Below are positions 3,849 to 53,971 of a DNA stretch of 64,000 nucleotides, piece by piece. This DNA is from Haliangium sp. GTDB lineage: Bacteria; Myxococcota_A; Polyangia; Haliangiales; Haliangiaceae. Positions within the stretch are counted from its first letter, which is position 1. Each line of letters begins with the position of its first letter. The stretch lies in the NCBI RefSeq assembly GCF_050304635.1, contig NZ_JBNLDX010000012.1, one strand, 5' to 3'. The position numbers and the translations under genes are program-made. The notes below the pieces were generated by a model, which was given only the letters and a program-made list of their open reading frames with translations, searched no databases and had not been told where the DNA came from.

Positions 3849-3968
3849 GAGCGCGCATAGTACACGAGCCCGGGGTCGGCTCGCCTCACAAGCTGCTCGT
3901 CGGCTCGGGCGACCGTGCCGACCGTGCCGGTCGGGCGACCGCGGCGGTCGGGCGACCGCGGTGACGGC

Positions 3969-5051
<1,083 letters not shown>

Positions 5052-5244
5052 TCGATCGGATCGGATTCAAGCCGAAATTGGCCACGATCACGCGAAATGG
5101 GCCCCGGTACGACCGACTTCGGCGTCCGCTGTCCAATCCGGAGCGTGCGATATTGGAACCAAAGCTGCTCGGGTCTGCTCCGCGCAAAGAGATCGCAACA
5201 AAGAGTGCGCAAGTGCCGACTTTGACGTACCTTGGTGGCCCTCG

Positions 5245-5736
5245 ATGGCCGAGCTGCGCGATCACCTGTGCTCGACTCCGGAGGCCACGGCGGAACTCGC
5301 CGGGCGCTTGGCCGAGCTGCTGCAGCCCGGCGACCTCATCGGCTTGATCGGCGAGCTGGGCGCGGGCAAGACGCTGCTGGTCCAGGCCCTGGCCCGCGGC
5401 CTGCGGATCCCGCCCGAGGTTCGAGTGACGAGCCCGACCTTCACCCTGATCAACGAGTACCACGGCGGCGCCGTGTCGCTGTATCACGTCGACCTGTACC
5501 GCATCGATCGCGCGCGCGATCTCGACGAGCTCGGCCTCGACGAGATCTGCCGCCGCGCCGACGGCGTTGTGTGCGTCGAGTGGTGCGATCGCTATCCGGT
5601 GCTGGGCCGCGACTTTCTCGAGATCCGGCTCGATATCGCGGGTGCGCACGCGCGTCGGGTCTCGGCGATCGGACACGGCCGGCGCGGAGGTGTGCTGGCC
5701 ACGGCCTGGGCGGATGCTGTGAGCAGCTCGACCTGA
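5245..5736 (+). CDS. tsaE: tRNA threonylcarbamoyladenosine biosynthesis ATPase TsaE
   Basis: ORF 5044..5736 trimmed to Met at 5245 (MAELRDHL...). P-loop GELGAGKT, SPTFTLINEY and LYHVDLYRI motifs are characteristic of TsaE/YjeE. Confidence 0.85.
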   Translation: MAELRDHLCSTPEATAELAGRLAELLQPGDLIGLIGELGAGKTLLVQALARGLRIPPEVRVTSPTFTLINEYHGGAVSLYHVDLYRIDRARDLDELGLDEICRRADGVVCVEWCDRYPVLGRDFLEIRLDIAGAHARRVSAIGHGRRGGVLATAWADAVSSST

Positions 5737-5830
5737 CCGAACCGCAGGTGTCGGGTGCCGTACTTGCCAACGTTGTGGGCAGTGTCTGGTGAGCAGCTCG
5801 ACCTGACCGAACCGCAGGTGTCGGGGCGCG
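5719..5830. repeat. About 1.6 copies of a 70-bp tandem duplication spanning the tsaE stop codon
   Basis: gtgagcagctcgacctgaccgaaccgcaggtgtcggg occurs at 5719-5755 and again at 5789-5825 (37/37 identical). The flanks diverge afterwards. Confidence 0.6.
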
Positions 5831-5839
5831 CTGCGTCAT

Positions 5840-6035
5840 GTGTCGGCTTCGCGTTAGCTGGTAAGTCGAATTACTGAATTTAGGTCGATCCTAGCGCCAT
5901 CCACCGCATTTTCGGCGGTCTGTCACCTATTCACTTGGGTGCAAGGACTTGGCAACGTGGCCCAAATCTGGGATAGGGTAGGCCGCATCGCGTCGCAGTC
6001 CCCAATGCATCAGACGAACTGGGAGTAGCAAAACT
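5840..6035 (+). promoter_or_regulatory. Low-GC intergenic leader and putative promoter upstream of the SusC-like receptor
   Basis: About 50% GC stretch in a 70% GC background, directly 5' of the ATG at 6036. AAACTATG start context. No motif assigned. Confidence 0.3.
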
Positions 6036-8966
<2,931 letters not shown>

Positions 8967-8987
8967 GACCTGAGGAGGCTTATCATC

Positions 8988-10301
<1,314 letters not shown>

Positions 10302-10419
10302 CCGCCGGTCGTCCCCAACCGCGGACAGAGCCCGGCCCTCGCCGGGCTCTTTTGCATTTCGGGGAAGCAGACGGCCGCGGTCGTGGACGAGGCCCCGACC
10401 GAGGGCCTACGCTCGGGCC

Positions 10420-13277: not shown

Positions 13278-14864
13278 ATGTCTGTTCGGATGCGCGGGCG
13301 CCGCCGCCTGGGCCTGGGCCTGGTGGCCTTGAGCGCGTGTGCGATCGCGTGGGCGTGGACGCCGGCGCCGGCCCAGGCGCGGGAGCCGCGCGTGTTCGAC
13401 CCGGCCCAGACGTATCTCGTCCCGCTCGGAGACGGTCCCCGACGGGGGCCGGACGACGCCCTGGTCACGATCGTCGAGTTTTCGGACTTCATCTGTCCGT
13501 ACTGCGGGCGGGTGCAAGAGACCCTGGCCGACCTCGAGCGGCTGTTTCCGGGCCAGATCCGGCGAGTGTATCGCCACAACCCGCTCGACCTCGACGACGC
13601 CGGTCTGGCCGCGGAGGCGTCCATGGCGGCGGGGGCGCAGGGCGCGTTCTGGCCCATGCACGAGCTGATCTTCGCGGCCGGCGGCCACCCCGGGCGAGCC
13701 CAGGTCGAGGACTTTGCGGCCGCGCTGGGGCTGGATGTGGGTCGGTTTCGGCGCGACCTGGACCAGCACCGACACCGCCCGGCGATCGAGGCCGACGCGG
13801 CGTCGGCCGAGCACCTGGGCGTGTACAGCACGCCCAGCTTCTTCATCAACGGTCGGCCCGTGGTCGGGGCGATGCCGCTGGAGGTGTTCGCGCGCATCGT
13901 CGAGGAGGAGCTGGCGCGGGCGCGGGCCTTGGTGGCCCAGGGCGTGGCCGCGGCCGAGGTCTATGACGCCGTGACCGCGGGTGGGCTGGCGCAGGGGGCT
14001 CGGCCCGAGGACGCGCCGGACGAGTTCGACCCTCGCTACCGCCCGACCGCGCTCGATTCCGCCTCGTTGTACGAAGTCGGTGACGGCTTGCCCGGGCACG
14101 CCCTGGGGCCGGCGGACGCGCCGCTCACGGTGGTGGTGTTTTCGGACTTCGAGTGTCCGTACTGCGCTCGGCTCCACCCGACCTTGCAGGAGCTGCGCGC
14201 GGTCTATGGGGACCGGGTGCGGGTCGTGCTGCGGCACCTGCCGCTGTCGTTCCACCCCCGGGCCCAGCTCGCGGCCGAGGCGGCGGTGGCGGCGGCGGCC
14301 CAGGGGCGACTATGGGCGTTTTACGACCGCGTGTTCGCCGAGCCGGAGGCGCTGTCGCGGGCCGACCTGGAGCGCCACGCCCGCGCCGCGGGCCTGGACA
14401 TGGACCGGTTCCGGGCCGCGCTCGACGACCGGCGCTACTTCGAGCAGGTGGCGGCCGACGCGGCCGCGGGCAAGGCGCTGGGGGTGCGGGGGACGCCGAC
14501 GATGTTCGTCAACGGCACTCCGATCCCGGGCGCGGCACCCTTCGATGTGCTCGATCGGCACGTGTTCCGGCCCAAGATGGCCGAGGCCGAGGCTTTGATC
14601 GCGGCCGGGGTGGCGCCGGCGGCGGTGTATCGCGCGCTGCTCGAACAGGTGGGCGGCGACGACGTCGCGGGGCGGGAGCGGCCCGTGGTCGGGGCCGCGG
14701 TCGGGGCCGCCGCGGGGGATCCGGGCACGGGTCGTGCGGCCCTGCTGCAGGCCTGTCGAGCCCGGGACGACGCCCGCGCGCAGCGGCTGTATCGCCAGAT
14801 GGGCACGCCGGCGCCGCCAGGAGTGCGGGTGCAGTGCAGGCCGTTTGGGGTGGATCTTCCTTGA
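13278..14864 (+). CDS. Secreted DsbA-family thiol:disulfide oxidoreductase with two tandem thioredoxin-fold domains
   Basis: Signal peptide RRRLGLGLVALSACAIAWA. Two CPYC active sites (FSDFICPYCGR and FSDFECPYCAR), each followed by a DsbA-like helical insertion (FWPMHELIF / LWAFYDRVF). Confidence 0.8.
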   Translation: MSVRMRGRRRLGLGLVALSACAIAWAWTPAPAQAREPRVFDPAQTYLVPLGDGPRRGPDDALVTIVEFSDFICPYCGRVQETLADLERLFPGQIRRVYRHNPLDLDDAGLAAEASMAAGAQGAFWPMHELIFAAGGHPGRAQVEDFAAALGLDVGRFRRDLDQHRHRPAIEADAASAEHLGVYSTPSFFINGRPVVGAMPLEVFARIVEEELARARALVAQGVAAAEVYDAVTAGGLAQGARPEDAPDEFDPRYRPTALDSASLYEVGDGLPGHALGPADAPLTVVVFSDFECPYCARLHPTLQELRAVYGDRVRVVLRHLPLSFHPRAQLAAEAAVAAAAQGRLWAFYDRVFAEPEALSRADLERHARAAGLDMDRFRAALDDRRYFEQVAADAAAGKALGVRGTPTMFVNGTPIPGAAPFDVLDRHVFRPKMAEAEALIAAGVAPAAVYRALLEQVGGDDVAGRERPVVGAAVGAAAGDPGTGRAALLQACRARDDARAQRLYRQMGTPAPPGVRVQCRPFGVDLP

Positions 14865-14893
14865 GCGGGCCTTGAGCGGGCCTTGAGCGGGCC
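14861..14893. repeat. Perfect 11-bp x3 tandem repeat (ttgagcgggcc) at the 3' end of the DsbA gene
   Basis: ttgagcgggcc ttgagcgggcc ttgagcgggcc read directly. The first copy overlaps the TGA stop of the DsbA-like gene. Confidence 0.7.
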
Positions 14894-14998
14894 CGAATTG
14901 GTTTGGCCTGAGCTGGTCGGGTCTGTCCTGGTCTGACCTGATCTGGCCTCGGTGGGTCGGCGCGCACTGCGGGCGCACGACTTCCTCGTGTGGACATC

Positions 14999-15045
14999 GA
15001 ACTGCGCGCGAGCGCGGGTGGGAACTGCGCGCGAGCACGGGTGGC
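14999..15045. repeat. Direct repeat gaactgcgcgcgagc(g/a)cgggtgg x2 in the leader of the large sensor gene
   Basis: Two 23-bp copies, 22/23 identical, separated by 1 bp, about 300 bp upstream of the start at 15346. Candidate paired operator sites. Confidence 0.5.
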
Positions 15046-15345: not shown

Positions 15346-18300
15346 ATGTTGGATATCGGGGATGTCTGCGCTGATCGCTATCGGCTGACCCGCCGGCTCT
15401 CCACGGCCTGGTCGGGCATCGAGCGGTTCTTGGCCGAGGACATGGGTCAGGGCGCCCCGGTCATCCTCCAGGCGGTCTCGGCCGAGCGCGTCCCCCACGC
15501 CACCAGGCTCCGGGTCGCGGACGAGGCCGTCATCGTCTCGGAGGTCGCCGATGGCGCCTTCCTCCCCGTGCTCGGGTCGGGGCTGCACGGAGATGTGCTC
15601 TATCAAGTAACCCCGAGGCTCGACGGCGACCTGCTCAGCGCGCGCATCGACGCCCAGCCGCTGTCGGTCGCGGACACGGTGGCGTTGGCCACGCGGGCCA
15701 CCGCCGCGCTCGACCTCGCCCATCGCAACGGCCTCGTCCACCGCAGCATCACGCCCTTCGATCTGCACATCGCCTCTGACGACCGGCTCTATCCGCTCGG
15801 CTTCGGCTGCGTCCGGGCGCCCGACCTCGAGACCGATGACCGCGCCATGTTGGTACAGCGGGCCCGCTACGCCTCGCCCGAGGAGGCCGGGATGGTCCAC
15901 GCCAGCGTCGACGGCCGGGCCGACCTGTACTCGCTCGGTGTCACCGTCTACCAGTGCGTGAGCGGGGAGGTGCCGTTCTTGGGCGACAACGTGGGCGAGC
16001 TGCTGCGCAATCACCTGACCGCAACCCCGGCGCCTTTACGCGAGCGCCGCGGCGAGGTCCCGCGGGTGCTCGACGAGCTGGTCCAGCGGCTGTTGCACAA
16101 GGACCCCGAGCAGCGATATCAGTCTGCGCAGGCGTTGCTCGTCGATCTCGAGGAGATCGGGCGTCGGCTCGCCCGCGGCGAAGCGGAGCCCGAGTTGACC
16201 CTGGGCCTGGCCGACCGCCGGCTGGCGCTCACCCAGCCCAGCTTCATCGGCCGGGCCAAGGAGCTCGCCTGCATCGAGACCCAGTTCGAGGCGGCGCGGG
16301 CCGGCAAGGGGGATCTCGTGCTCATCGAAGCCCCCTCCGGAGGAGGCAAGTCACGCTTGCTCGAAGAGGTCATGCTGCGCGCCACCCAACGGGGGCTGTG
16401 GTTGCTGCGTGGCCAAGGGGTGGCCGAAGGCGGTCTGCCCTACGAGGCCTTGGAGGGGTTGACGCGTGAGGTGGTGCGCGCGGGCCAAGACGAGCCGACG
16501 CTGGCCGCGCGCCTGCGCGAGGCCCTCGAAGAGCACCTCCAGGCCAGCTACGAGGTGTTCCCCGGCCTGCGCTCGCTCTTGGGCGAGGTCCCCGAGCGCG
16601 ACTTCGGCGTCGCCGTCGGTGCCCAGGAGCGCACCCAACGCGCGCTCACCGAGTACGTCTGTGCGCTGGGCACGGCCGAGCGGCCGGCCGTGGTCGTGAT
16701 CGACGACGCACAGTGGGCCGACACCAGCACCCTCGAGACCGTGGCCTCGTGGCGGACCCGGGTCGCGCGCGGGTCCGGTGCGTCGAGCCACACCCTGGTG
16801 CTCTTGGCCTTCCGGTCCGACGAGGGCGACGCCGTGCGCGCGCTCGAGACCGACACCCACCTGGTCCTGCCGCCCCTGCGACAGCCCGAGGTGCGCGCGT
16901 TGCTCGAGTCCATGGCCGGCGCGTTGCCCGACGATATCGCGACCACGGTGATCCGCTTGGCCGACGGCAGCCCGTTCTTGGCCGCCTCACTGCTGCGCGG
17001 GCTGGTCGAGGTCGGGGCTCTGCAGCACCAGGGCGCTACGTGGGTGGTCGAGTCGTCGGCGCTGGACGACATGCGCTCCTCGGCCGACGGCGCGGTGATG
17101 TTGCAGCGTCGGCTCACCCACCTGGCCGAGGAGACCCTCGCGGTGCTCGAGATCGGGGCCGTGCTGGGCAGGCACTTCGCCGCCCACATCGTGGCCGAGC
17201 TCAGCCGACGTGAGCGCCGCCTGGTCAACCAGACCCTGGCCGAGGCGTGCCGGCAGCAGCTCCTGTGGGCCAACGCCGACCTCACCACCTACACCTTCGT
17301 GCACGACAAGCTGCGCGAGGCGGTACTCGACCGGCTGTCCCCGGACCAGCAGCGCGCCCTCCATGTGGCCGCCGCCGCCGAGTTGGAGACCCAGGTGCCG
17401 GCCTCGGCCAGCGAGGTCGCCTACCACTACGACGCCGGCGGGGAGCCGGTGCGGGCATTGCCGTTTGCCATCGAGGCCGCGGAGGACGCCCGCCGCAGGC
17501 ACGCGCTGTCCGTGGCCGAGTCTCTGTATCGGGTCGCCTTGCGCGGCGAGGAGGCCGCCGACCAGGCCATGGCGCGGCGGATCCAGCTCGGGCTCGCCGA
17601 CATCCTGCTCCTCCAGGGCCGCTTCGACGAGGCCGAAGGGCACCTGGAGGCCGGGCGCCAGCTCGCCGAGAGCCACGAGCAGCGAGTAGAGGTCGAGAGC
17701 CAGTTCGGCAAGCACTTCCACCAGCGCTGCAACTTCCCCAAGGCGGTCGAGCACCTCGAGCGGAGCTTGGTCATGCGCGGGGTGTCGCTGCCCCGGCGCC
17801 CGACCTGGGTCGCGCTGCGTTTGCTGAAGGAGGTGGGGGTGCAGGTCCTGCACCGCGTCTTCCCGCGCTGGCTCCGGGCCCGTGGTCCGCTCGACCGGGC
17901 CGAGCACGACCTGGGCGTCGCGCTCGACCTGGTCCGCCTGAGCTACACGTGGTTGTTCTTGGGCAACCCCAAGGCCAGCCTGTGGGCGGTGCTGCGCGCC
18001 GTCAACCAGGCCGAGCGCTACCTTCCCGGCGCTACCCTGGGCGAGGCCTATGGGTTCATCACCTTCGCGGGCTCGATGGGGCTCGGCTACGATGCGGTCG
18101 CCTACTACGGCGAGGGCGCGCTGGACTACTCGCGCCGCTTTGGCAACCTGTTCCAGGAGGGGCTGTCGCACGCCCGCGTGGGCAGCGCCATGTTCTGGAT
18201 GGCCCGTTGGGACGAGAGCCTTCACCACGCCGAGATCGCGGTGCGCATGTTCGAGCGCGCCGGCGAGGCCTTCGAAGGCGGCTCCGCGCTGTACGTGGCC

Positions 18301-20487
18301 AGCATGGCGGCCTTTCGCCTCGGCGATCTGCGCGCCGGCCTCGCCTACGCCCGCCGGCTCTACGATGACGGGGTGGCGCGCCAGCTCCCGCAAGGCTTTG
18401 CCACCGGACTGGCGATATGGGCCTTCGCCAGCGGCGGCCAGGTTCCGGAGCAGGCGTTCGAGACCGATATGCCCGGGGTCGAGGATGACCTCGTCCGCCG
18501 GCAGTGCCTGTACCTGGCCAGGGGCGTCTGCTGCTACTACCGCGGCGACAGCCGGGCCGCGGTCGAACTGCTCGAGCAGGCGAGCAATGCGCACGACCGC
18601 TTCACCGCGTCGGTGGCGACATCGATGACGGTGCTGCCGTGGTACGCCACGGTCCTGCGGCGCGCCGCCCTGGAGACCCCGCCCCATGCCCCCGCCGAGC
18701 GCCGTGGCTTTCTGCGCCGGGCCCGCCGGGCCGCGCGCCAGGGGCTGAAGACGGCCGGTCGCCTGCCCGCCGGGCACCCCCACGCGCTGCGCGAGCTGGG
18801 CTTGTTGGCCGCCTACGACGACGAGCCCGGCGAGGCCCGTCGCCTCCTCGACCAGAGCCTGGCCGAGGCCCGCCGCCAGCAGGCCCGCATCGAGGAGGCC
18901 TACACGCTGTGGATGCGGGGCCGGGTCGGGCTGTCCTTGGGCTGGGAGGACGCCGACGTGGACCTGGCCAAGGGCCGCACCACCCTGCGCGAGCTGGGTG
19001 CCGGCTTCATCTTGGCCGCGGAGGGCGATGAGGGCATCAGCGGCGGCGCCGAAGGGTTCTCACTCTCGCTCGCCGACCGCTTCACCACCATCCAGGAACA
19101 GGGCCGCCGCATCGCCGCCGCGCTGTCCCGCGACGCGGTCTTCGACGCCACCCACGAGGCCGGCAAGACCCTGCTCCGGGGCGACGTGGCCGTGGTCCTG
19201 ATGCGCGCGAGCGACGCGCCCGACGCCCCCTGGCGACCCGTTGCGGGCGATGTCGGACGCACGGACATCGAGCCCGAGCTGCTCCGGCGCGCGGCCGAGT
19301 CGGGGCAGCCGCTGATCGCGGCGGACGACGAAGAGCTCAGCGGCGTCGACGAGGTCGGGATCCGCTCGGCCCTGGGGGTGCCCATCAAGGAGCGCGGCCG
19401 ATGCGCGGCCGTGTTGCTGGTGGAGCATCACGGCGTGGCCGGGCTGTACGGCGACGAGGAGGCCCGGCTGGGCGAGTACATCGCCACCCTCGCCGGCGCG
19501 GCCTTGGAGAACGCGGCCGGCTTCGCCGAGGTTCAGGAGCTGAGCCGCAGCCTCGAGCAGCGCGTGGTCGAGCGCACTGCCGAGTTGGCCGACTCCAACG
19601 TCAAGCTGCAAGACAGCCTGCGGCAGCTCCACGAGGCCCAGCAGCGCCTGATCCGGATGTCGCGCGAGGCCGGCATGGCCGAGATCGCCACCGGGGTGCT
19701 GCACAACGTCGGCAACTTGCTCAACAGTCTCCAAACCTCCACCTTCGTCGCCATCGAGCGGCTGCAGGCGTCGAGCATCGACTCCGTGTCCCGCTCCAGC
19801 GCCCTGCTCGACCAGCACCAAGGCGACTTGGTCGCCTTCTTCGTGCACGACCGGCGCGGCCAGCGCTTCCCCGAGCTGCTCCAGCGCCTCGGCGAGCGCC
19901 TCATCGATGAGCGTGACCAGGTCTTGGTCGAGATGCAGCGCATCCAGGAGCTCATCGGGCACATCAAGAAGGTCGTGCAGGCCCAGCAGGTCTACGCCAC
20001 GCGCGCCAGCGTCAAGGAGGAGTGCGCCTTGACGGCGCTGGTCGAGGAGGCGCTCGAGCTCCAGGCCGAGCGCCTCGCCCGTCACCAGGTCACGGTGGTG
20101 CGCGAGCTCGCCGAGCTCCCCTCCTTCGCGCTGGAGCGCCACAAGCTGGTCCAGATCCTGATCAACCTGATCTCCAACGCGATCGATGCCATGGTCGAGG
20201 TCCCTGCGGGCGAGCGCCGCCTCAGTGTGCGTGTTCGCGCTCACGACGGCGATTCCTCGCCGCCGATCGCCCACGTCGACGTCGCGGACAACGGGCGCGG
20301 CATCGCTCGGGAAAACCTGGTCAGGGTCTTCCAGTACGGCTTCACCACCAAGGCGGACGGCCACGGCTTTGGCCTGCACTCCAGCGTTCTGGCCGCCAAC
20401 GAGATGGGCGGCGCGCTCCGATGTAGCAGCGACGGGCCCGGCACCGGCGCCACCTTCACCCTCGACCTGCCCATGCAGCCGGCGTGA
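15346..20487 (+). CDS. Multidomain sensor: degenerate Ser/Thr-kinase (pseudokinase) + AAA/STAND ATPase + TPR-like region + GAF + histidine kinase (HisKA-like H-box + HATPase_c)
   Basis: ORF 15265..20487 trimmed to ATG 15346, preceded by GGGAGA. The N-terminal kinase fold lacks the VAIK lysine (PVILQAV), has HRS instead of HRD (LVHRSITPFD) and LGFG instead of DFG. P-loop LVLIEAPSGGGKSRLLEEV. GAF region (...GVPIKERGRCAAVLLVEHHGVAGLYGDEEARLGEY). H-box EIATGVLHNVGNLLNS. HATPase ISNAIDAM...DNGRGI...GFGLHSSVLAANEMGG. Confidence 0.85.
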   Translation: MLDIGDVCADRYRLTRRLSTAWSGIERFLAEDMGQGAPVILQAVSAERVPHATRLRVADEAVIVSEVADGAFLPVLGSGLHGDVLYQVTPRLDGDLLSARIDAQPLSVADTVALATRATAALDLAHRNGLVHRSITPFDLHIASDDRLYPLGFGCVRAPDLETDDRAMLVQRARYASPEEAGMVHASVDGRADLYSLGVTVYQCVSGEVPFLGDNVGELLRNHLTATPAPLRERRGEVPRVLDELVQRLLHKDPEQRYQSAQALLVDLEEIGRRLARGEAEPELTLGLADRRLALTQPSFIGRAKELACIETQFEAARAGKGDLVLIEAPSGGGKSRLLEEVMLRATQRGLWLLRGQGVAEGGLPYEALEGLTREVVRAGQDEPTLAARLREALEEHLQASYEVFPGLRSLLGEVPERDFGVAVGAQERTQRALTEYVCALGTAERPAVVVIDDAQWADTSTLETVASWRTRVARGSGASSHTLVLLAFRSDEGDAVRALETDTHLVLPPLRQPEVRALLESMAGALPDDIATTVIRLADGSPFLAASLLRGLVEVGALQHQGATWVVESSALDDMRSSADGAVMLQRRLTHLAEETLAVLEIGAVLGRHFAAHIVAELSRRERRLVNQTLAEACRQQLLWANADLTTYTFVHDKLREAVLDRLSPDQQRALHVAAAAELETQVPASASEVAYHYDAGGEPVRALPFAIEAAEDARRRHALSVAESLYRVALRGEEAADQAMARRIQLGLADILLLQGRFDEAEGHLEAGRQLAESHEQRVEVESQFGKHFHQRCNFPKAVEHLERSLVMRGVSLPRRPTWVALRLLKEVGVQVLHRVFPRWLRARGPLDRAEHDLGVALDLVRLSYTWLFLGNPKASLWAVLRAVNQAERYLPGATLGEAYGFITFAGSMGLGYDAVAYYGEGALDYSRRFGNLFQEGLSHARVGSAMFWMARWDESLHHAEIAVRMFERAGEAFEGGSALYVASMAAFRLGDLRAGLAYARRLYDDGVARQLPQGFATGLAIWAFASGGQVPEQAFETDMPGVEDDLVRRQCLYLARGVCCYYRGDSRAAVELLEQASNAHDRFTASVATSMTVLPWYATVLRRAALETPPHAPAERRGFLRRARRAARQGLKTAGRLPAGHPHALRELGLLAAYDDEPGEARRLLDQSLAEARRQQARIEEAYTLWMRGRVGLSLGWEDADVDLAKGRTTLRELGAGFILAAEGDEGISGGAEGFSLSLADRFTTIQEQGRRIAAALSRDAVFDATHEAGKTLLRGDVAVVLMRASDAPDAPWRPVAGDVGRTDIEPELLRRAAESGQPLIAADDEELSGVDEVGIRSALGVPIKERGRCAAVLLVEHHGVAGLYGDEEARLGEYIATLAGAALENAAGFAEVQELSRSLEQRVVERTAELADSNVKLQDSLRQLHEAQQRLIRMSREAGMAEIATGVLHNVGNLLNSLQTSTFVAIERLQASSIDSVSRSSALLDQHQGDLVAFFVHDRRGQRFPELLQRLGERLIDERDQVLVEMQRIQELIGHIKKVVQAQQVYATRASVKEECALTALVEEALELQAERLARHQVTVVRELAELPSFALERHKLVQILINLISNAIDAMVEVPAGERRLSVRVRAHDGDSSPPIAHVDVADNGRGIARENLVRVFQYGFTTKADGHGFGLHSSVLAANEMGGALRCSSDGPGTGATFTLDLPMQPA

Positions 20488-20584
20488 TCTGCCGGTGTCG
20501 TCGTTGCCCGCCATTGCTGGTCCGACCATGTCCTCTATGAGTTGCGACCGGCCAACTCCGCGGCAAGACCAGCGGGAGGGCCAG

Positions 20585-21073
20585 ATGCACTCTTGTGCGG
20601 GCGCGCCAAGCGGGTACGATGCCCCTGTCGAAGCGAGGGGAGAAACCGTGTCTCACGAAAAGCGGCGGGCTCGCCGTGTTTTGCTCAACGTTCCCACCGT
20701 CGTTCAGCCGCTCGCGCCGGCTGACGTCAGCATGCACCCCAACCTGGAGCGGGTCTACGAGCGCGTCATGCCCAACGAGCGCGCCATCGGCCAAAAATTC
20801 CCGGCCGTGGTCCGCGACATCTCCATCAACGGCGCCTTCATCGTCGGCGAGGCCCTGCCCCTGCTGACCCGGGTCGCGTTCTCGTTCCAGCTCAAGGGCT
20901 ACGGCCAGGTCGACGCCCTGGGCTGGAGCCTGTGGCGGCGCGAGGAGGACTGCGAGGTCCCCGGCCCCAATGACACCATCCTGATCCTGCCCATGGGCTT
21001 CGGCGTCCTGTTCGAAGCCATCCCTCTGGACGCCCGCATTGCCATCCACAAATACGTCGCCGCTGCCTCGTAG
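20585..21073 (+). CDS. PilZ-domain protein (c-di-GMP binding)
   Basis: RRARRVLLNVPT (RxxxR) and VVRDISINGAFIVGE (DxSxxG) motifs. Alternative GTG start at 20648 with GAGGGGAG Shine-Dalgarno. The longer track ORF (from 20186) overlaps the upstream gene. Confidence 0.7.
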   Translation: MHSCAGAPSGYDAPVEARGETVSHEKRRARRVLLNVPTVVQPLAPADVSMHPNLERVYERVMPNERAIGQKFPAVVRDISINGAFIVGEALPLLTRVAFSFQLKGYGQVDALGWSLWRREEDCEVPGPNDTILILPMGFGVLFEAIPLDARIAIHKYVAAAS

Positions 21074-21593
21074 TTTTCGCTTTCGCCCCCGCTTCCGCGC
21101 CCTCGCCACCGGCGCGAGCGCGCTCGGCGCGGCCCTGATCGTCTACGGCGCCGTGCTCGGCGGCCCGCAGGCGCTCTACGCCGTGCTCGGCGGCGCTCTC
21201 GGGCTGGCCCTGGGGGCCCTGTACTTGATCTCGCCCGCGTGGCGCCTCACCGTGACCGCCGACGAGGACGGGCTGGTGGTCGAGCGCCGGGGCCGCCCGC
21301 GGCTGAAGCTGGCCTGGACCTCGATCGTGCGCGTCGTGGCCTCGCCCGACACCGCCACCTGCTTCGTGGACGGCGGCGACCCAGCCTGCAGCCTGTTGGT
21401 GCCCGGCGTCGGCGCCAGCGCGCCCTATGACATCGAGGACAAGGCCGTCCTGTGCGAGATCATCCTGGCCCGGGTCGCGCCCGAGCGAATCGAGCGGGTC
21501 GAGCTGCTCGAGGCCTCGCTCGGCGAGCGCCGGTCCGGGGCCGCGCCCGACGGTGAGCGGGTCGAGACAGATCCGGCCCAATCTGCTAAGTAG
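21039..21593 (+). CDS. Small membrane protein with two N-terminal TM helices and a bPH-like soluble domain
   Basis: TM segments GASALGAALIVYGAVLGG / LGGALGLALGALYLISPAW followed by WRLTVTADEDGLVVERRGRPRLKLAWTSIVRV. The start is uncertain; the 21039 ATG overlaps the PilZ gene end by 35 nt. Confidence 0.4.
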   Translation: MPSTNTSPLPRSFRFRPRFRALATGASALGAALIVYGAVLGGPQALYAVLGGALGLALGALYLISPAWRLTVTADEDGLVVERRGRPRLKLAWTSIVRVVASPDTATCFVDGGDPACSLLVPGVGASAPYDIEDKAVLCEIILARVAPERIERVELLEASLGERRSGAAPDGERVETDPAQSAK

Positions 21594-21632
21594 CCCGCGA
21601 CGCGGACGAGGACCCGTCCGCCCGGAGCCGCC

Positions 21633-22729
21633 GTGACCTACGAGCTGCGATCGAGCACCATCACCTTCGAAGCCGCGCTGCGCGACCTCGGCAGCAAGAG
21701 CGACCGCGTGCGCGCCCAGGCCGCCAACGCCCTCGGCGACGTGCACACCCCCGAGCAGCGAGCCCAGGCCGTGCCGGCCCTGATCCAGACCCTGGCCGAC
21801 CGTCGGCCCGAGATCCGCAGCGAGGCCGCGCTCGCGCTGGGCGAGCTCGACAGCGCCGACGCCGTGGACCCGCTCGTGGCCTGCTTCGACGATCCCGTGC
21901 CGGTGGTCCGTCAGGCCGCTGCCATCGCGCTCGGACGCCTGGCCCTCCCGGCCGCGTTCGAATCGGTGGCCCGGGCCCTGCGCGAGGGGCCACCTGATCT
22001 GCGTTTCCAGGCCGCGACCTCGCTGGCCGAGATCGACCCCGAGCGCGCCGGCTCGGTTTTGCTCGACGCCCTGGACGACGACGACGGTGAGGTGGTGGCG
22101 GCCGCGGCCCTGGCCCTGGGCGCCGTGGGCGAGACCCGCGCCCGTGAGCGCCTGGCCGAGCTGCTCGACACCTGGTCCCGGCCCCGTACCCGCTTCGACC
22201 TCGCCTACGCCCTGGCCGACCTCGGCGACGCCCGCGCCCTCGACGTGCTCGCGACCTTCCTCGACGACGACGGCTTGGCCTGGGACGCCATCGAGGCCCT
22301 CGAGCGCCTGGCCGGCACCCTGCCCGGCGCCGGCGCCGACGGCCGTGTCCCAGGTAAGACCGAGCCTGCGCGCTCGGCCAGCCCCGACCACGCGGACGAT
22401 GTCCCGAGCCCGGCCGAGCTGCGCGCCGGCGCGGCCGTGTATATCGCGCCCCTGCTCAGCAAGCGGGGCGTGGCCGCCATGATCAAGCTGCGCGCCGCCG
22501 CCGCCGTGCTCGCCTTGGATCCCGACAACCCCGCCGCCGAGCCGGCTCGGGCCGCGCTGCTGGCCGGCCTGCGGGCCCGCAAGCGCGAGCGCCGCGGCCT
22601 CACCATCGAGCTCCTGGCCCGGGTCGGCGGCCCCTGGGCCATCGCGCCCCTCCAGGCCCTGCGCGCGCGCCGCGCCGGGCGTCCCTTCCACGACGAGATC
22701 GACGACACCCTGGCCCGGCTGGGAGCGCC

Positions 22730-22733
<4 letters not shown>
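21633..22733 (+). CDS. HEAT/PBS-lyase-like repeat protein
   Basis: GTG start. Repeated ~30-aa units (RAQAANALGDV, RSEAALALGEL, VRQAAAIALGRL, RFQAATSLAEI, VAAAALALGAV) typical of HEAT repeats. The 3' end overlaps the tatD start (ATGA). Confidence 0.7.
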
Positions 22734-23530
<797 letters not shown>

Positions 23531-23544: not shown

Positions 23545-25149
23545 CTAGCTGTCGATGCGCAGGTAGCGCGGGCTTTCGTCCAGCGGGTCGAGTTCGTGCT
23601 CGGCGCCGATGGTCTCGAGCGCAGGGGACGTGGACATCGCCGCCGGCGTGGCCATGATGCCGCTATACGGCTCCAGCGGGGCCCAGTCGCCGAGTTCGAG
23701 CACCGGCCCGCCGATCACTTGTCTGGCGCCGTCGACCGTGCGCAGGGTGGCCTCGGCCCGGTGCAGGCAGATGTTGACGTGCAGGCGGCTGTGCGGGTCC
23801 AGGCAGGAGGCGAGCTGGGGCTCCAGCTCGCGCGCGAGCGCGATCAGGGCGGAGCGGTGCACCACCGCGGTGTCAGTGATGGGCACGACCCCGACCAGGG
23901 TCTGGCCGGTCTGCAGCGCGGTTTGCACGCCCGCGCCGTCGAAGATGGCCTCGGTGGTGTCGAGCACGGCCATGAGCTCCATGAACAGGTCGTCGTCGAG
24001 GGCTTCGTCTTCGGCCACGCGGGCGTCCACGTACAGCGCGAAGGCCGAGCCGGTGGTGTCCTTGGTGGCGTCGGCTGGGTTGGGGTGGACCGCGCGCCGC
24101 AGCCCGGCGAGGAAGTCGGCGACGCTGTCGTAGCGCTCCGCCGGCGCCTTGGCCATGGCCCGCGCGACCACGGCGTCGAGGCCGGGGCCGACCGGGGCCA
24201 GCTTGCTGGGCGGGGGCGGGGCGGCGTGGACCTGCATCTGAGCGAGCAGGATCGAGTTTTTGTTCATGAACGGGAACCGGCCAGTGAGCATGCGGAACAA
24301 CAGCACGCCCAGGGCGTAGACGTCGGTGCGCACGTCGACCGGTTGTCCCAATACTTGCTCGGGCGCCATGGTGTGGGGCGAGCCGAGCAGCAGCCCCACG
24401 CTGGTGTTGATGCCGCTGGGGCCGTCGGGGTCGATCAGCTTGGCCAGCCCGAAGTCGAGCAGCTTCACCGTCGGCCCTGCCCCGGAGGCGTCGGGGGCGC
24501 CGGGGGGATCGCGCAGCATGACGTTGCTGCTCTTGATGTCGCGGTGGACGATGCCGGCCTCATGGGCGCAGGTGAGGGGATCGCAGATGAGCTCCATGAG
24601 CTCCAGCGCTTCGGTCGGGGACAGCCGCCCGCGGCGGTCGATCCACTCGCTCAGGCTGATCCCGATGACCAGCTCCATGATCATGTACGGGCGCCCATCG
24701 TCGAGGGCACCGGTGCCCAGAATCTCGACCACGCCGCGGTGACGGATGCGCTGCATGGCCTCGCTCTCGCGCAGGAAGCGCTGCACGTGCTGCGGCGACG
24801 CGGCGAGATAGGAGTGGAGGACCTTCACCGCCACCCGCCGGCCGCTGTCTTCGCGCACGGCTTCGTACACGGTCCCGCACCCACCGCGGCCGAGCGTGTC
24901 CACGATGCGACAGCCTCCGATCATGGTGCCCGCAGCGAGCTGCGCTCCGTAGTCGAACTCCTCGTCGCCCTTGATGAAGCGCATCGACTGGGTGACCACG
25001 ATCATTTGTGAGTCGGTCTCGTCTGTCTGGCCGGGCGCGGCCACCAGCTCGGACGCGCGTTTGCTGGGGGCGCCGCTGTCGCCGGGGGCGAGGTCGGCCC
25101 CGGGTGGGCGATGGTCATGCTGTGGAGGGTTGTGGTTGCGATCGCTCAT
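23545..25149 (-). CDS. Canonical Ser/Thr protein kinase with ~190-aa C-terminal domain of unknown function
   Basis: ORF 23545..25431(-) trimmed to MSDRNHNPP (ATG 25149, preceded by AGGTGGTG). [41 protein letters not shown]-terminal 190 aa with no recognised catalytic motif. Start lies 8 bp after the stop of the RCC1 gene. Confidence 0.85.
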
Positions 25150-25157
25150 GGCACCAC

Positions 25158-28037
25158 CTATGGCGTGACGTCCACATCGAGGACCGGATGAACCGCGGGC
25201 GCAGCGTCTTCCTTGGAGGCGATGGAGAAGGTGCCGGACTGGGCCACGCAGGCGAAGCTGACCACGCCGTCGCCGGCGTACTCGTCGCTGACGTAGTCGG
25301 TGACGTCTACGTACACCCAGCCGCCGGCCACGCCGCTCACCGCCCCGAGGCTGACCCCGGGCGCCGGCATGTCGTTCCAGGTGAGGGTGTCTTCGCTCCA
25401 GCCGTCGTCGTCGATCCGCACCAAGTCGCACACCCCGCTGGGGTCGTTGGAGTACAGGCGCAGGATGGCTTGGCTCACGCTGGAGCCGGGGGCGGCGGAG
25501 AGGTCGAAGCGCAGCAGCAAGCGCTCCTCGGCGAGGGCCGAGGCCACGCTCGTGATCGGGTCTTGCCCGCCGTAGCTGGTGTCGGGCTTCTTGGCCCGGG
25601 CCTCGGTGTCGTCACTCGGGGCCAGCGACACCCGAGCGGTGTCGCACACGCCGCAGTCGGCGGCGCAGGTGTCACAGGACTCCGCGTGCTCGGGCTCGCA
25701 CACCGCGTTGTGGTTGCAGGCCAGGTCGACGACGACCGGCACCGACGAGGACCAACCCGGGAACAGCAGCGCGTGCGTATCTCGGCCCCAGCACGACAGG
25801 GTGCCGTCAAAGCTCACCGCGCAGCTCGTCTCGCCCTGGCAGGTCACCAGCTCGACGTCGGTGCCGAGGGCGGTGACCTGGGTCGGGATCTCGGCCGGGC
25901 TGGAGGTGCCGTCGCCGACCTCGCCGAAATCGTTTGCGCCCCAGCAGAACAAGGCCCCGTCGTCGCGGATGGCGCAGGTGTGGTCGCGTCCGCAGGACAG
26001 GCCGCCGGGCGCGGCGAAGCCCGGGAACGCGGTCTGGACCGGTCGGGGGCGGGGGCTCAGGGTCGGGGCGCCGGCGCCGATCTGGTACTGGGAATCCTGA
26101 CCCCAGCACCACACCGTGCCGTCGCTGCGGCGCGCGCAGGTGTGGGCCTCGCCGCCGCAGACGTCGGTCACGGCGCCGAAGGCACCGCCGCCGGCGTCCT
26201 GGTCCACGACCACCGGGACGAGGCGATCGACGAGGCTACCGTCGCCGACCTGACCGTAGTCGTTTCGGCCCCAGCAGTACAGATCGCCGCTGATGGTGAT
26301 GGCGCAGCTCGAGCGCGAGCGCGAGCCCAGCGAGCGCTCCGAGACCTGGTTGCCGAGCGCGCTCACCGGCACCGGCAGGGGCTGGTCGACGCCGCTGCCG
26401 TCGCCGACCTGACCGAAGTCGTTGTTGCCCCAGCAGTGTAGGGTGCCGTCGGTGCGGCGGGCGCAGCTATGGCGGTCGTTGGCCGAGATCGCGGCGACGT
26501 CGCTGCTCAGGGCGGAGACGTAGGTCGGCTTGGAGCGGTCGACGATGGTGCCGTCACCGAGCTGCCCCTTGCTGTTCAGGCCCCAGCAGTACCCATCGCC
26601 ACTGGTGGTGCGGGCGCAGGTGTGGCGCCAGCCGCCCGAGACCTCGGCCACGGCGCCGCTCAGGGTCATGACCTGGAGCGGGTAGGGTTCGAAGTCGGAC
26701 ACGAAGCCCAGGCCGAGCTGACCGAGGTTGTTCTTGCCCCAGCACCACAGCGTGCCGTCGTTGCGAATGAAGCAGTTGTGCTCGTCGCCGAAGGCCAGCT
26801 CCTGGCCCAGATCGAGGAAGGTGTTGATCACGGCCGACTCGCCGTCGCAGTCACCGTAGGCGAGATCGACCGGGTCGCGCTGGCTGCACACGTCGGCGCA
26901 GTCGCCCAACGAGCGGAAGCCGCAGTCGCCCTCGGTGCAGGTGCGCCCCGACAGCCCGCCGCCGGTGACCATGCAAGTGTGGATTTCGGGGGTGGGGCCG
27001 AACACGTCGCCCCAGAACGCGCCCTCGTGGGTATCGAAGTGGGCGCGCTCGACCGCGGACGTGGTGATGCCCGAGCCCCGCAGCGAGATCCGCACCTTCT
27101 TGCCCTTGGCGTTGGAGCGCGCCGCCAGACACGCCGACACCTTGCGCTGCTCCACGGAGGTGGGCGCGCCGTCACGCCAGCTCGGGGCCAGCCCGAGCGA
27201 GCCCTCGAACACCATGGGGGTGACACCGTCGATGTCGTAGATGGTAGCGCTTTGGCCGGGAGAAAGGGCGCACTCGACCATGTACTGGAGCAGAATCTTG
27301 GTGGCCTCGATGTTCCACGGCTCGTGGGTGGCTGTGTGACCGTCTGCGCCGGCGCGACGGACGAAGCACTCGCCCATGTCGGCGGACTTGGTCAAATCGG
27401 GCACGTTCACGTTCCAGGTGGGATCGTGTCCTTCCAAGCCACAATAGTCCTGGGTGGTGCCGTCGAGCCGGGTGACGGTGACGCACTGCCCCACGACGAG
27501 GGCGCACTCGGCCAGGTACTTGATGATGTTCTCGACGTCGTCGGCCTCGAGCGCGCTGATGGGCTGCCCGTCGATCTTCATCGTGCTCAACGTGGCGTCG
27601 GAGAGGGAGGCCGCGTTGAGAGACGCGTTGCTCATGGCCTCGGCGTCGAAGGAGAGCGTGTTCAGCCAGATGTCCTCATAGACGGCGCCGTTGAGGGAGG
27701 CGAGGTTGAGGGAGGCGAGGTTGCGCGAGGCGAGGTTGAGGGAGGCGAGGTTGAGGGAGGCGAGGTTGAGCTGCACGCCGTTGAAGGCGAGGCCGCTGGG
27801 GTTGACGTGGTTGAACGCGATCCCGTTGGGGCCGAGGTTGTTCTGGCTCAGGCCGTTGGAGAGCTGAGCGAGCGCGGCGCGGTTGTGCTCGACCTCGCCC
27901 GCGAATGCGGACGCGGGCGGGTTCTCTGCCGGCCGGCACGCGACCAGCGCGACCCACGCCAGCAGGGCTGCGCCGGCGTATCTCCCGTCGTGCCTGCGCC
28001 GCCGCGGCTCGATTCGAGCCTGGCAGTCGGGTTTCAT
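25158..28037 (-). CDS. Secreted lipoprotein: NLASL pentapeptide-like repeats + Cys-rich region + RCC1-type beta-propeller + C-terminal beta-sandwich-like domain
   Basis: ORF 25158..28067(-) trimmed to MKPDCQ...ALVAC (lipobox). NLASLNLASLNLASRNLASLNLASLN repeats. At least six RCC1 blades (C(W)G.N..GQLG.G, H(T/S)CA). Cys-rich middle and tail. C-terminal LRLYSN...LTWNDMP region. Confidence 0.85.
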   Translation of the reverse strand: MKPDCQARIEPRRRRHDGRYAGAALLAWVALVACRPAENPPASAFAGEVEHNRAALAQLSNGLSQNNLGPNGIAFNHVNPSGLAFNGVQLNLASLNLASLNLASRNLASLNLASLNGAVYEDIWLNTLSFDAEAMSNASLNAASLSDATLSTMKIDGQPISALEADDVENIIKYLAECALVVGQCVTVTRLDGTTQDYCGLEGHDPTWNVNVPDLTKSADMGECFVRRAGADGHTATHEPWNIEATKILLQYMVECALSPGQSATIYDIDGVTPMVFEGSLGLAPSWRDGAPTSVEQRKVSACLAARSNAKGKKVRISLRGSGITTSAVERAHFDTHEGAFWGDVFGPTPEIHTCMVTGGGLSGRTCTEGDCGFRSLGDCADVCSQRDPVDLAYGDCDGESAVINTFLDLGQELAFGDEHNCFIRNDGTLWCWGKNNLGQLGLGFVSDFEPYPLQVMTLSGAVAEVSGGWRHTCARTTSGDGYCWGLNSKGQLGDGTIVDRSKPTYVSALSSDVAAISANDRHSCARRTDGTLHCWGNNDFGQVGDGSGVDQPLPVPVSALGNQVSERSLGSRSRSSCAITISGDLYCWGRNDYGQVGDGSLVDRLVPVVVDQDAGGGAFGAVTDVCGGEAHTCARRSDGTVWCWGQDSQYQIGAGAPTLSPRPRPVQTAFPGFAAPGGLSCGRDHTCAIRDDGALFCWGANDFGEVGDGTSSPAEIPTQVTALGTDVELVTCQGETSCAVSFDGTLSCWGRDTHALLFPGWSSSVPVVVDLACNHNAVCEPEHAESCDTCAADCGVCDTARVSLAPSDDTEARAKKPDTSYGGQDPITSVASALAEERLLLRFDLSAAPGSSVSQAILRLYSNDPSGVCDLVRIDDDGWSEDTLTWNDMPAPGVSLGAVSGVAGGWVYVDVTDYVSDEYAGDGVVSFACVAQSGTFSIASKEDAAPAVHPVLDVDVTP

Positions 28038-28080
28038 AGGCCCCGCCAAAGGTCGATGTGGTCGCATTCATTGGCTCCAT

Positions 28081-28361
28081 ATAAGACTTGTCATACGGTG
28101 CACGGCGGTCGCAACCGTCCCATCCCGGGCCACCGTTGGTAGATCGGGCTCGCTGAGCGATCCCCCGTGCTCGAGCGTCTATCGACAGTATTCAACAGTA
28201 TTCAACGAAGTGTTTGACATGTACCATAACATGTTCTTTGCTTTTTGCGACCGAGATACGGGGGGCGTGGCCTGGATCCGTCAGGGTTTTTCTGATCCAG
28301 GTCTAGATGGCCAAGTTTGATTGGATTGGGCATCACATGTGGATGACGCGTTGATACCCCG
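28081..28361. promoter_or_regulatory. AT-rich divergent promoter region between the RCC1/kinase operon (-) and the STPK-AAA-TPR gene (+)
   Basis: About 48% GC vs 70% background. Tandem decamer cagtattcaa x2 at 28186-28205. TTGACA at 28214-28219 followed by ACATGT-n6-ACATGT. Confidence 0.45.
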
Positions 28362-37967: not shown

Positions 37968-38037
37968 GGCGTGAACCTAACTCTCTCTGGCCTGGGTTCC
38001 AACAGTCGTGCGCGGCTGTGATACGCTGCGGGCGGTC

Positions 38038-40080
<2,043 letters not shown>

Positions 40081-41959: not shown

Positions 41960-42179
41960 ATGCGATCCTTTCGGGAACAATGGCGGCGTCATCTGCTCCC
42001 GGTATTCAGCAAACCCCGTGCCGCCTCTGCCGGGCCCAGAGCGCGCATACTTCCATGTCTGCACGGGGGTCGGCTGTGGCCGATGTACCTCAGCCTGTGA
42101 CGTGGATGTCTCGCCTGCACCACGCGATGCGGTCGACGGTCGAGCCCTCGGCGTCGAGATCGCGCGATCGCCGCGGCGC

Positions 42180-53967: not shown

Positions 53968-53971
53968 GACA

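Follow-up and report, generated by a model that had tools for sequence, protein, structure and literature searches.

The Haliangium gene at positions 15346–20487 (+ strand) encodes a large sensor histidine kinase (HK) of 1713 aa, a soluble myxobacterial protein from a widespread, already catalogued family. Its unusual trait, judged from aligned residues, is limited to an N-terminal Ser/Thr kinase domain without catalytic residues. We consider it probable that the protein is a STAND-type multidomain sensor HK of the STK-AAA_16-(TPR)-GAF-HK family, that its Ser/Thr kinase is a conserved pseudokinase in this Haliangium lineage, and that the PilZ gene lying downstream is separate from it.

The open reading frame begins at the ATG at 15346, the same start used by RefSeq, and has a GC3 of 0.92. 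Its product is a 100% match to RefSeq WP_428261864.1 from Haliangium sp. and contains no TM-like segment. From the N to the C terminus, the protein comprises a Hanks-type kinase fold, an AAA_16/STAND NTPase, a TPR/helical region, a GAF domain, a coiled coil, a DHp and a HATPase_c domain. The first-pass annotation had described a pseudokinase-STAND-TPR-GAF-HK hybrid of this length, and that layout was upheld by Pfam, by sequence motifs and, for the DHp, by AlphaFold2 (AF2) and Foldseek. The Pfam matches span aa 56–264 (Pkinase), 300–468 (AAA_16), 745–808 (TPR_12), 1262–1388 (GAF) and 1599–1711 (HATPase_c).

The kinase fold occupies aa 1–275 (15346–16170, + strand), as delimited by Pfam and by alignment with Mycobacterium tuberculosis PknB. 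A Pkinase match of 45.9 bits, against a cut-off of 31.7, indicates that the fold is present, and PknB aligns over aa 9–271 (HMMER, E=2.8e-25). Catalytic residues were called from this HMMER alignment, which is ungapped across the catalytic and DFG region, with MAFFT columns serving as a second check. The VAIK lysine, K40 in PknB, is replaced by Q42. HRD has become HRS at aa 132–134 (nt 15739–15747), with Ser134 in place of the Asp, and the catalytic loop carries T for K and D for N. DFG has become GFG at aa 152–154, leaving Gly152 at the Asp position, and the Gly-rich loop, LGFGGMS in PknB, reads LSTAWSG. This degenerate domain does retain the alphaC Glu and the SPE motif. The initial claim that the VAIK lysine, the HRD Asp and DFG are lost is thus confirmed by both alignments, and a displaced catalytic lysine was ruled out, no Lys being found in residues 1–251. 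With the VAIK, HRD and DFG motifs all gone, we infer that the N-terminal domain is a pseudokinase.

Only four close relatives were found (P0002–P0005, 50–80% identity; RefSeq WP_428261696.1, WP_428261346.1, WP_428263978.1 and WP_428263979.1), and they appear, from RefSeq accession numbering, to be paralogues within one genome, the last two of these accessions being putative neighbors. All four share the kinase-domain losses: across the five proteins, Q or H stands in for the VAIK Lys, Ser for the HRD Asp and Gly for the DFG Asp. The catalytic-loop Asn position is Asp in three of the five. Residues 1–251 are likewise free of Lys in three of the four paralogues, P0002 having a single Lys at position 105. 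The loss of five key positions together with the Gly-rich loop, repeated in every close relative, supports the earlier view that the fold is catalytically degenerate.

Among the five proteins, the pseudokinase domain has a mean pairwise identity of 61%, compared with 62% for the NTPase and 56% for the CA domain, and 40% of its columns are invariant, C-lobe surface motifs among them; the lowest conservation falls in aa 831–1235. Identity to active relatives is 36% for the pseudokinase domain and 31–41% for the other domains. This pattern of conservation indicates that the domain is held under constraint and is not a decaying remnant. It also makes it improbable that the domain merely survives from an ancestral dual kinase as a neutral relic, retained as a functionless N-terminal appendage. 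Degenerate kinase domains do recur in the family, which speaks for such a relic: of 115 homologues, 81 have the full set of four key kinase residues, 34 lack at least one, and the domain is wholly absent in at least one homologue (P0053). In this lineage, however, the domain is full length, is as well conserved as the NTPase and HK domains in the five paralogues, and has diverged from active relatives to no greater degree than other parts of the protein. In a rough NJ tree built from 265 kinase domains, in which we place low confidence, the Haliangium clade had no degenerate group as its sister, and we therefore dropped the possibility that the pseudokinase subfamily is older and wider.

By its Walker motifs, a P-loop STAND NTPase is present in the central part of the protein (aa 300–470; 16243–16755, + strand; AAA_16, 73.6 bits). 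Walker A (APSGGGKS, aa 329–336, nt 16330–16353) and Walker B (VVVIDD, aa 449–454) are invariant across the five paralogues. Further along lies a TPR/helical repeat region (aa 701–1235; 17446–19050, + strand), a putative sensor arm. Its TPR_12 match scores 40.2 bits, and across aa 831–1235 no Pfam family exceeded threshold, the only match being a sub-threshold one to DUF3856. A GAF domain (GAF/GAF_2 in Pfam; aa 1260–1388; 19123–19509, + strand) precedes the HK module, which consists of a coiled-coil signalling helix with the DHp (aa 1393–1551; 19522–19998, + strand) and a HATPase_c catalytic (CA) domain (aa 1558–1709; 20017–20472, + strand; 65.6 bits).

The HK module looks intact. The predicted phospho-acceptor His1453 (nt 19702–19704) lies in an invariant H-box, GVLHNVGNLLNS, and the CA domain contains an N box (NLISNA, 1607), a G1 box (DNGRG, 1648), an F box and a G2 box (GHGFGL, 1672). 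The residues of the H-box and of the N, G1, F and G2 boxes are invariant in 22 of 22 sequences. Pfam HisKA gave no match to the protein, and the identity of the DHp is inferred from the H-box, an AlphaFold model and Foldseek matches. In the AF2 model (mean pLDDT 80.5), His1453 sits on DHp alpha1, and two short helices are inserted between alpha1 and the long alpha2; the DHp part is modeled with moderate confidence (pLDDT 57–89). The top Foldseek matches are all DHp-CA kinases, namely DivL, HK853, ZraS, LvrB, WalK and CckA. An intact GAF-HisKA-HATPase module had been proposed at the outset; the GAF domain, the HATPase_c domain and the H, N, G1, F and G2 residues agree with that description, but the HisKA assignment does not extend to a Pfam match. 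No response regulator was found in the window, that is, the whole 64-kb stretch of DNA analyzed, by tblastn with CheY, PhoB and NtrC receivers.

Downstream of the kinase, a stand-alone PilZ-domain protein of 141 aa is encoded at 20648–21073 (+ strand) from the GTG start given by RefSeq; an alternative ATG at 20585 would yield 162 aa. The gap between the HK stop and the PilZ start is 160 nt with the GTG and 97 nt with the ATG, in keeping with the PilZ gene first reported about 100 bp downstream. The protein scores 18.1–18.7 bits against Pfam PilZ (PF07238), under the cut-off of 22.5, because a spacer of ~46 aa bearing a helix separates its two motifs. Among its homologues, 24 of 25 match Pfam PilZ at E<=0.01 (best, 1.2e-6). 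Both c-di-GMP motifs are found, RRARR (RxxxR) and DISING (DxSxxG); the D, S and G never vary across 25 homologues, and R6/R10 are kept in at least 90% of them. An AF2 model has a pLDDT of 88.3, and its top 27 Foldseek PDB matches are PilZ domains, with a Foldseek probability of 1.00 for 5y6g, 7mie and 8u0i. Searching the PDB with a profile of this family returned a single match, weak and irrelevant. By family, modeled fold and both c-di-GMP motifs, the gene is a true PilZ.

Functionally, this PilZ gene is probably outside the kinase system and a neighbor by rearrangement. In five of five other Myxococcota loci, its orthologue lies in the order holB-PSP1-(metG)-PilZ-small membrane (TM) protein, beyond which come a HEAT-repeat gene in four of the five and TatD in three. 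We take this holB-PSP1-metG...TatD cluster to resemble the Pseudomonas holB-pilZ-tatD arrangement. None of the five loci inspected has a STAND-HK kinase directly upstream of the PilZ orthologue, and the adjacency is therefore no evidence of a functional pair. A co-transcribed, c-di-GMP-linked module in which PilZ replaces the response regulator as partner or output is accordingly unlikely, for all that the two genes share a strand with a gap of 97–160 nt in which no convincing terminator was seen; past the kinase stop, a single terminator-like site was called on the + strand, and it lies within the PilZ coding sequence. Such a module would also fit the position of PilZ, in the slot held by a response-regulator gene in kinase relatives, and its two c-di-GMP-binding motifs. 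Apart from the conserved context elsewhere, copy number counts against it: in the homologue search, this gene itself is the sole member of its PilZ family at >75% identity and the kinase has ~5 paralogues, so most kinase copies cannot pair with it. PilZ genes are, moreover, abundant in myxobacteria, M. xanthus having 24, of which 14 are stand-alone (PMC8316039). The suggested c-di-GMP link of the kinase is not supported.

The 481-nt leader of the kinase gene contains a tandem direct repeat of 23 nt x 2 (14999–15044, + strand), located 302–347 nt ahead of the ATG. The near-perfect leader repeat reported earlier is real, with 22 of 23 positions identical and a match in none of 100 shuffles, but it lies upstream of the interval stated there, 15346–21073. 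Tandem repeats are common in the window, which holds 14 distinct arrays at a TRF score of at least 50; the same leader carries an 11 nt x3 array at 14859–14893 and overlapping 15/10-nt arrays at 14899–14949. No evidence of a function for the leader repeat was found, a sigma-70 promoter scan identified no site, and neither an Rfam match nor a tRNA gene was detected anywhere in the window.

Homology searches with the 1713-aa protein returned 649 matches at E<=1e-10, and RefSeq names it a [quoted passage not shown]. The architecture is already known, the literature using the name "dual protein kinases" or HstK (PMC2176072), and the protein is otherwise an ordinary part of the large myxobacterial signaling repertoire. 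A literature search for the combination of AAA_16, Pkinase, histidine kinase and GAF found no paper, and the architecture is absent from a Planctomycetota STK paper. The first-pass annotation had singled out the bridging of kinase, STAND and two-component elements; these do occur in one polypeptide, but as a trait of a very large named family. Relatives in this family have adjacent response-regulator genes, and tandem pairs are frequent. Within the family, aa 1–1235 are ~38% identical to TPR-containing homologues (up to 49% for the GAF region, 1236–1392), whose outputs are HisKA, HisKA_3 or GGDEF-EAL. Residues 1393–1713 show 40–52% identity to another branch, with which they have the H-box LHNVGNVLNS in common. 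These identities make the protein a mosaic, put together from two family branches.

In the cytoplasmic, STAND-type sensor HK that we favor, input would be taken up by the TPR/helical arm and the GAF domain, and the P-loop NTPase would act as an ADP/ATP-gated oligomerization switch, as in MalT-type STAND proteins. The long coiled coil would link GAF to the DHp carrying His1453, which the CA domain is predicted to phosphorylate for transfer to a response regulator presumably encoded elsewhere; the motifs and fold of these domains are observed, and their activity and partner are proposed. The N-terminal kinase fold, given its residue losses, would have forfeited productive ATP binding and transfer catalysis, and may have been kept as a non-catalytic module for dimerization, for allosteric control or as a docking platform for one of the organism's many active Ser/Thr kinases. 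In evolutionary terms, the HK output module may have been swapped in from the second family branch, after which the gene would have multiplied to ~5 paralogues, and a lineage-specific rearrangement would have placed the PilZ gene, from a separate housekeeping-type cluster, beside the kinase.

Some kinases without canonical residues remain active. We nevertheless regard it as very unlikely that the N-terminal domain works as an atypical kinase, or binds nucleotides as an enzyme, by means of migrated or non-canonical residues in the style of WNK, CASK or SelO, which would make the protein a true dual kinase. In favor of this reading, conservation extends to the overall fold, the alphaC Glu, the first two residues of HRD (His-Arg), the SPE/P+1 loop and the alphaF motif; three of the five proteins have Asp where the catalytic loop normally carries Asn; and conservation of the domain argues for some function. 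Against catalysis stand the joint loss of the Gly-rich loop and of five positions needed for catalysis or ATP binding, the Q/H, Ser and Gly substitutions in all five proteins, and residues 1–251 that are Lys-free in four of the five, with only Lys105 in P0002.

It is highly doubtful that the dead kinase serves as an integrated decoy or sensor that feeds into two-component signaling, as a bacterial counterpart of ZAR1-ZED1, and that it detects partner kinases or the molecules and proteins that target kinases, for instance toxins and effectors from prey or phage; were this true, the ~5 paralogues with their least-conserved TPR arm would reflect diversifying specificities. The setting of this reading is a myxobacterium that lives as a predator and has hundreds of Ser/Thr kinases. 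A role in anti-phage defense, whether as an Avs-like STAND or as a kinase-based system, is extremely improbable despite the STAND NTPase and TPR architecture and PADLOC matches to the PD-T4-6, mad6 and MkoA models, since every match is confined to the kinase fold (aa 1–317) of systems that need an active kinase, the output is a canonical HK with no defense-type effector, and the adjoining genes are housekeeping and signaling genes with no defense island. These PADLOC matches were set aside as generic kinase-fold similarity, with no full-length model match.

STAND-coupled histidine kinases constitute a very abundant family that is biochemically almost unstudied. If the pseudokinase assignment holds, the Haliangium protein provides a clean natural case of a dual kinase whose Ser/Thr half has turned into a conserved module without catalysis and whose His-kinase half is intact. 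The five relatives, apparently paralogues, set against active relatives would offer a ready comparison for asking how the kinase domain matters to kinases of this STAND-coupled type.

Non-catalytic pseudokinase signaling modules are known from plant ZED1, which works with the STAND/NLR protein ZAR1 (PMC6634424), and a bacterial pseudokinase example is YukC/EssB (PMC9600267). Like the ZED1-ZAR1 pair, the 1713-aa protein brings together a STAND NTPase and a conserved kinase fold lacking catalytic motifs, here in cis where the plant partners act in trans. Unlike that pair, it has a predicted two-component phosphotransfer output and shows no sign of a decoy or immune role, and its homology to ZED1 and YukC/EssB is restricted to the general kinase fold.

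The PilZ protein can be compared with the stand-alone PilZ receptors M. xanthus PlpA and P. aeruginosa PA0012 and with the PilZ domain of E. coli YcgR. It shares their PilZ beta-barrel fold and the RxxxR and DxSxxG motifs, which are predicted to bind c-di-GMP, and differs from them in the helix-bearing spacer between the two motifs.

The NTPase and arm of the kinase are closest in design to MalT-type (AAA_16) STAND NTPases, in which a Walker A/B P-loop is followed by a helical/TPR sensor arm, and by analogy ligand- and ATP-gated oligomerization would be expected. Some members of the MalT-type group are fused to kinases, M. tuberculosis PknK being one. Whereas MalT-type STANDs carry a LuxR DNA-binding domain, the Haliangium protein has an HK output, an extra N-terminal pseudokinase and an extra GAF domain.

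The nearest counterparts are the dual protein kinases of the cyanobacterial cbSTKIII family, HstK/Alr2258, Alr0709/Pkn40 and Alr0710/Pkn41. These have in common with the 1713-aa protein an N-terminal Hanks-type fold, a central GAF domain and a C-terminal HK in one polypeptide (PMC2176072), with an AAA_16 NTPase in between, and adjacent paralogues occur among them, Alr0709 and Alr0710 (PMC2176072). The Haliangium protein differs from them in having no Ser/Thr catalytic residues, a TPR/helical arm of ~530 aa, a make-up drawn from two family branches and no adjoining response regulator. Because its Ser/Thr catalytic residues are all lost, the names "dual" and "trifunctional" do not apply to it, and the database name is corrected for this protein and its four close relatives, none of which is "trifunctional".

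The window has a G+C content of 66–74% across most of its length, and a GC3 filter singled out one long gene at 15346–20487 (+; GC3 0.92), whose translation from ATG 15346 yields 1713 aa. The product is identical to WP_428261864.1 (Haliangium sp., Myxococcota, Haliangiales), which RefSeq names a 'trifunctional serine/threonine-protein kinase/ATP-binding protein/sensor histidine kinase'. Pfam matches comprise Pkinase (aa 56–264), AAA_16 (aa 300–468), TPR_12 (aa 745–808), GAF (aa 1262–1388), and HATPase_c (aa 1599–1711). No hydrophobic segment was found across the 1713 residues; the protein is therefore considered cytoplasmic.

Residues 9–271 align to Mycobacterium tuberculosis PknB (HMMER, E about 3e-25), gap-free from the catalytic loop to DFG. 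Residue losses were read here and in a MAFFT alignment comprising PknB and 120 homologues, and motif coordinates were checked by translation. K40 of PknB, the VAIK lysine, is replaced by Q42, HRD by HRS, the catalytic-loop Lys by Thr, N143 by Asp, and DFG by GFG, and LSTAWSG stands in place of the Gly-rich loop LGFGGMS. Retained features are the alphaC Glu, SPE, and the alphaF motif DLYSLG. A mere shift of position is excluded for the catalytic lysine, as the earliest lysine in the protein is K252. The first-pass annotation observed the gene correctly, and its pseudokinase call proved robust, the VAIK Lys, HRD Asp, DFG Asp, and Gly-rich loop all being gone; the N-terminal kinase domain is thus firmly predicted, from its sequence, to be dead.

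Decay would be one explanation for these losses, and the close relatives argue for conservation instead. In a search of 5.8 billion clusters, only four other proteins (P0002–P0005) exceeded 50% identity (51–80%). A filter-free HMMER search with the first 300 aa against 1.84 billion representatives placed only two of these four close (82% and 56%), with the next matches at no more than 44% identity. In all five proteins, Q or H takes the VAIK position and D or H the Asn position, and HRS, the catalytic-loop Thr, and GFG are common to them. Mean pairwise identity among them is 61% for the pseudokinase, 62% for the NTPase, 59% for DHp, 58% for GAF, 56% for CA, and 49% for aa 831–1235. Identity to active relatives is 36% for the pseudokinase domain and 31–41% for the other domains, a parity indicating that the domain has been maintained. 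The dead state therefore appears, on these sequence comparisons, to be conserved rather than decaying. The accessions of the five span WP_4282613xx–639xx; WP_428263978 and WP_428263979 are consecutive and lie on the same 76,745-bp contig, and the kinase (WP_428261864) and its PilZ neighbour (WP_428261863) are likewise consecutive. From these RefSeq records, we infer that the five are paralogues of one Haliangium genome (assembled twice), two copies being adjacent. They form a single clade without a degenerate sister in a rough NJ tree, which suggests that the catalytic loss arose independently and preceded the duplications.

The histidine-kinase half appears intact but belongs to a type that Pfam HisKA misses, as no HisKA match was obtained in the protein even at E<=0.1. 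The segment MAEIATGVLHNVGNLLNS lines up with the ZraS and FixL H-boxes. Invariant positions in 22 sequences comprise His1453-Asn-Val-Gly-Asn, the N-box asparagines, DxGxG of G1, the Phe of the F box, and GxGxGL of G2. In an AlphaFold model of aa 1393–1713 (mean pLDDT 80.5; CA domain >90, helices 57–89), a ~48-residue helix is followed in turn by DHp alpha1 with His1453, two short inserted helices, a 49-residue alpha2, and the CA domain. All of the top 50 Foldseek matches in the PDB were histidine kinases or near relatives, the alignment spanning DHp and CA in almost every case. Residues 1–1235 show about 38% identity to the TPR-containing branch of the family (GAF, 1236–1392, up to 49%); aa 1393–1713 show 40–52% identity to a different branch, P0093–P0111, with a common LHNVGNVLNS H-box. 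These identities mark the protein as a mosaic of two branches with a swapped HK module. The H-box variant [VA][LM]HNVGN[VLA][LM][NT]S occurs in aa 1393–1713 (window 19522–20484) and in P0093–P0111, accompanied by a DHp that exceeds the usual length by about 70 residues owing to the two inserted helices, and HisKA misses it; together, these features define a distinct DHp subtype shared throughout one branch of the multidomain kinases. Response-regulator genes adjoin relatives of both branches, and tandem pairs occur. No receiver domain was found in the 64-kb window, and the kinase is accordingly an orphan there.

Within the STAND module, Walker A (APSGGGKS, aa 329–336) and Walker B (VVVIDD, aa 449–454) are intact and invariant among the paralogues. 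In MalT-type STAND proteins, a ligand on the repeat arm licenses nucleotide exchange and oligomerisation. By analogy, ligand at the repeat arm would trigger both steps and could thereby bring the DHp–CA modules together. The aa 831–1235 arm is the least conserved part among the paralogues, which would fit a specificity-determining sensor.

The downstream ORF that stops at 21073 (+) scores well as coding sequence (GC3 0.85) and has two candidate starts with Shine–Dalgarno-like sequences, ATG 20585 and GTG 20648; the latter (141 aa) is favoured by RefSeq and homologue N-termini. Pfam PilZ is sub-threshold for this protein, yet matches 24/25 homologues. RxxxR and DxSxxG are conserved in the family with an unusually long spacer (~46 aa), and the top PDB matches of the AlphaFold model (pLDDT 88) are PilZ domains only. 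By family, motifs, and fold, the product is a PilZ protein. The family exceeds 500 proteins, the best 120 being about 140 aa with 54–75% identity; one homologue, P0188, carries a tRNA_bind domain alongside PilZ. The c-di-GMP link to the kinase suggested by this neighbour is unsupported: on all five long contigs examined (L081, L082, L084, L088, L089), PilZ lies between holB-PSP1-(metG) on its upstream side and a small membrane protein gene on its downstream side, with HEAT (4/5) and TatD (3/5) further downstream. The window retains the downstream half of this cluster (membrane protein, 21039–21593; HEAT, 21633–22733; TatD, 22730–23530), and the kinase and a DsbA-like gene stand upstream in place of holB-PSP1; the adjacency of kinase and PilZ is therefore attributed to a lineage-specific rearrangement. 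M. xanthus alone has 24 PilZ proteins (PMC8316039), and a PilZ gene could easily come to lie beside a signalling gene by chance. A predicted c-di-GMP receptor linked to replication and translation housekeeping genes may deserve separate study. The conserved Myxococcota cluster holB-PSP1-(metG)-PilZ-small membrane protein-(HEAT-TatD), represented in the window by 20648–23530, resembles the holB-pilZ-tatD arrangement that exists in Pseudomonas.

The leader contains a 23-nt repeat in two copies (14999–15044; 22/23 positions identical), which occurs once in the window and exceeds chance expectation. The 64 kb contain 14 distinct tandem-repeat arrays with a TRF score >=50, this one included; no promoter- or terminator-like site and no RNA family was associated with it, and slippage duplication is the simplest explanation. 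The leader also carries an exact 11-nt x3 repeat, CCTTGAGCGGG (14859–14893), and overlapping 15-nt/10-nt arrays (14899–14949), so that several distinct tandem arrays fall inside 481 nt.

Five further genes in the window have strong Pfam Pkinase matches: 3969–5066 (-), 23545–25431 (-), 28347–32510 (+), 37981–40080 (+), and 53837–57991 (+). AAA_16 is present in one and TPR_12/TPR_10 repeats in another; canonical HRD and DFG were read solely in the 23545–25431 protein. The ORF at 59339–61462 (+), with major-vault-protein domains (MVP_shoulder, E=8e-29; Vault_3), encodes a myxobacterial homologue of vault proteins, a eukaryote-like feature, and that at 40865–42418 (-) combines lipin/PITM-type LNS2 and PITM beta-sandwich domains of eukaryote-like lipid signalling. 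A SusC-like (Plug + CarboxypepD_reg) and SusD/RagB-like gene pair, a type typical of Bacteroidota, lies at 5982–10301 (+) in this Myxococcota genome. An RCC1-repeat (WD40_RLD) protein with a CBM96 module (25158–28067, -) contains a 15-nt x5.4 tandem repeat (27690–27770, 93% matches) inside its coding sequence. G+C falls from about 0.70 to 0.575 at 62001–64000, a possible boundary of foreign or non-coding DNA.

The interpretation in the first-pass annotation needs correcting here too, as the bridging architecture it highlighted is common and already named. At E<=1e-10, 649 proteins from many phyla share a Pkinase-AAA_16-(TPR)-GAF core, followed by HisKA/HATPase, HisKA_3, GGDEF-EAL, or receiver outputs, and from 2001 onward the literature has called the cyanobacterial branch HstK or 'dual protein kinases' (cbSTKIII) (PMC2176072). 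Degenerate kinase domains recur within the family: all four K/D/N/D residues are kept in 81/115 homologues and 95/144 nearest kinase-domain relatives, three or more are lost in 8/115, and one other homologue among the 115, P0059, has lost all four. Three points are specific to this gene: its Ser/Thr catalytic apparatus is lost completely and the loss is conserved, its HK module is swapped, and it belongs to what seems to be a five-fold paralogue expansion within a single Haliangium lineage. Members of the family are frequently encoded next to or close to a paralogue, a Response_reg+GerE regulator gene following the pair, as in L085 (Comamonadaceae MAG; 1–10379) and L087 (metagenome contig; 1–9971); P0242/P0005 is probably such a pair in Haliangium. 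This pairing may point to heteromeric function, and it resembles the adjacent Alr0709/Alr0710 pair of Anabaena, adjacent and co-transcribed paralogues being known among the cyanobacterial dual protein kinases (PMC2176072).
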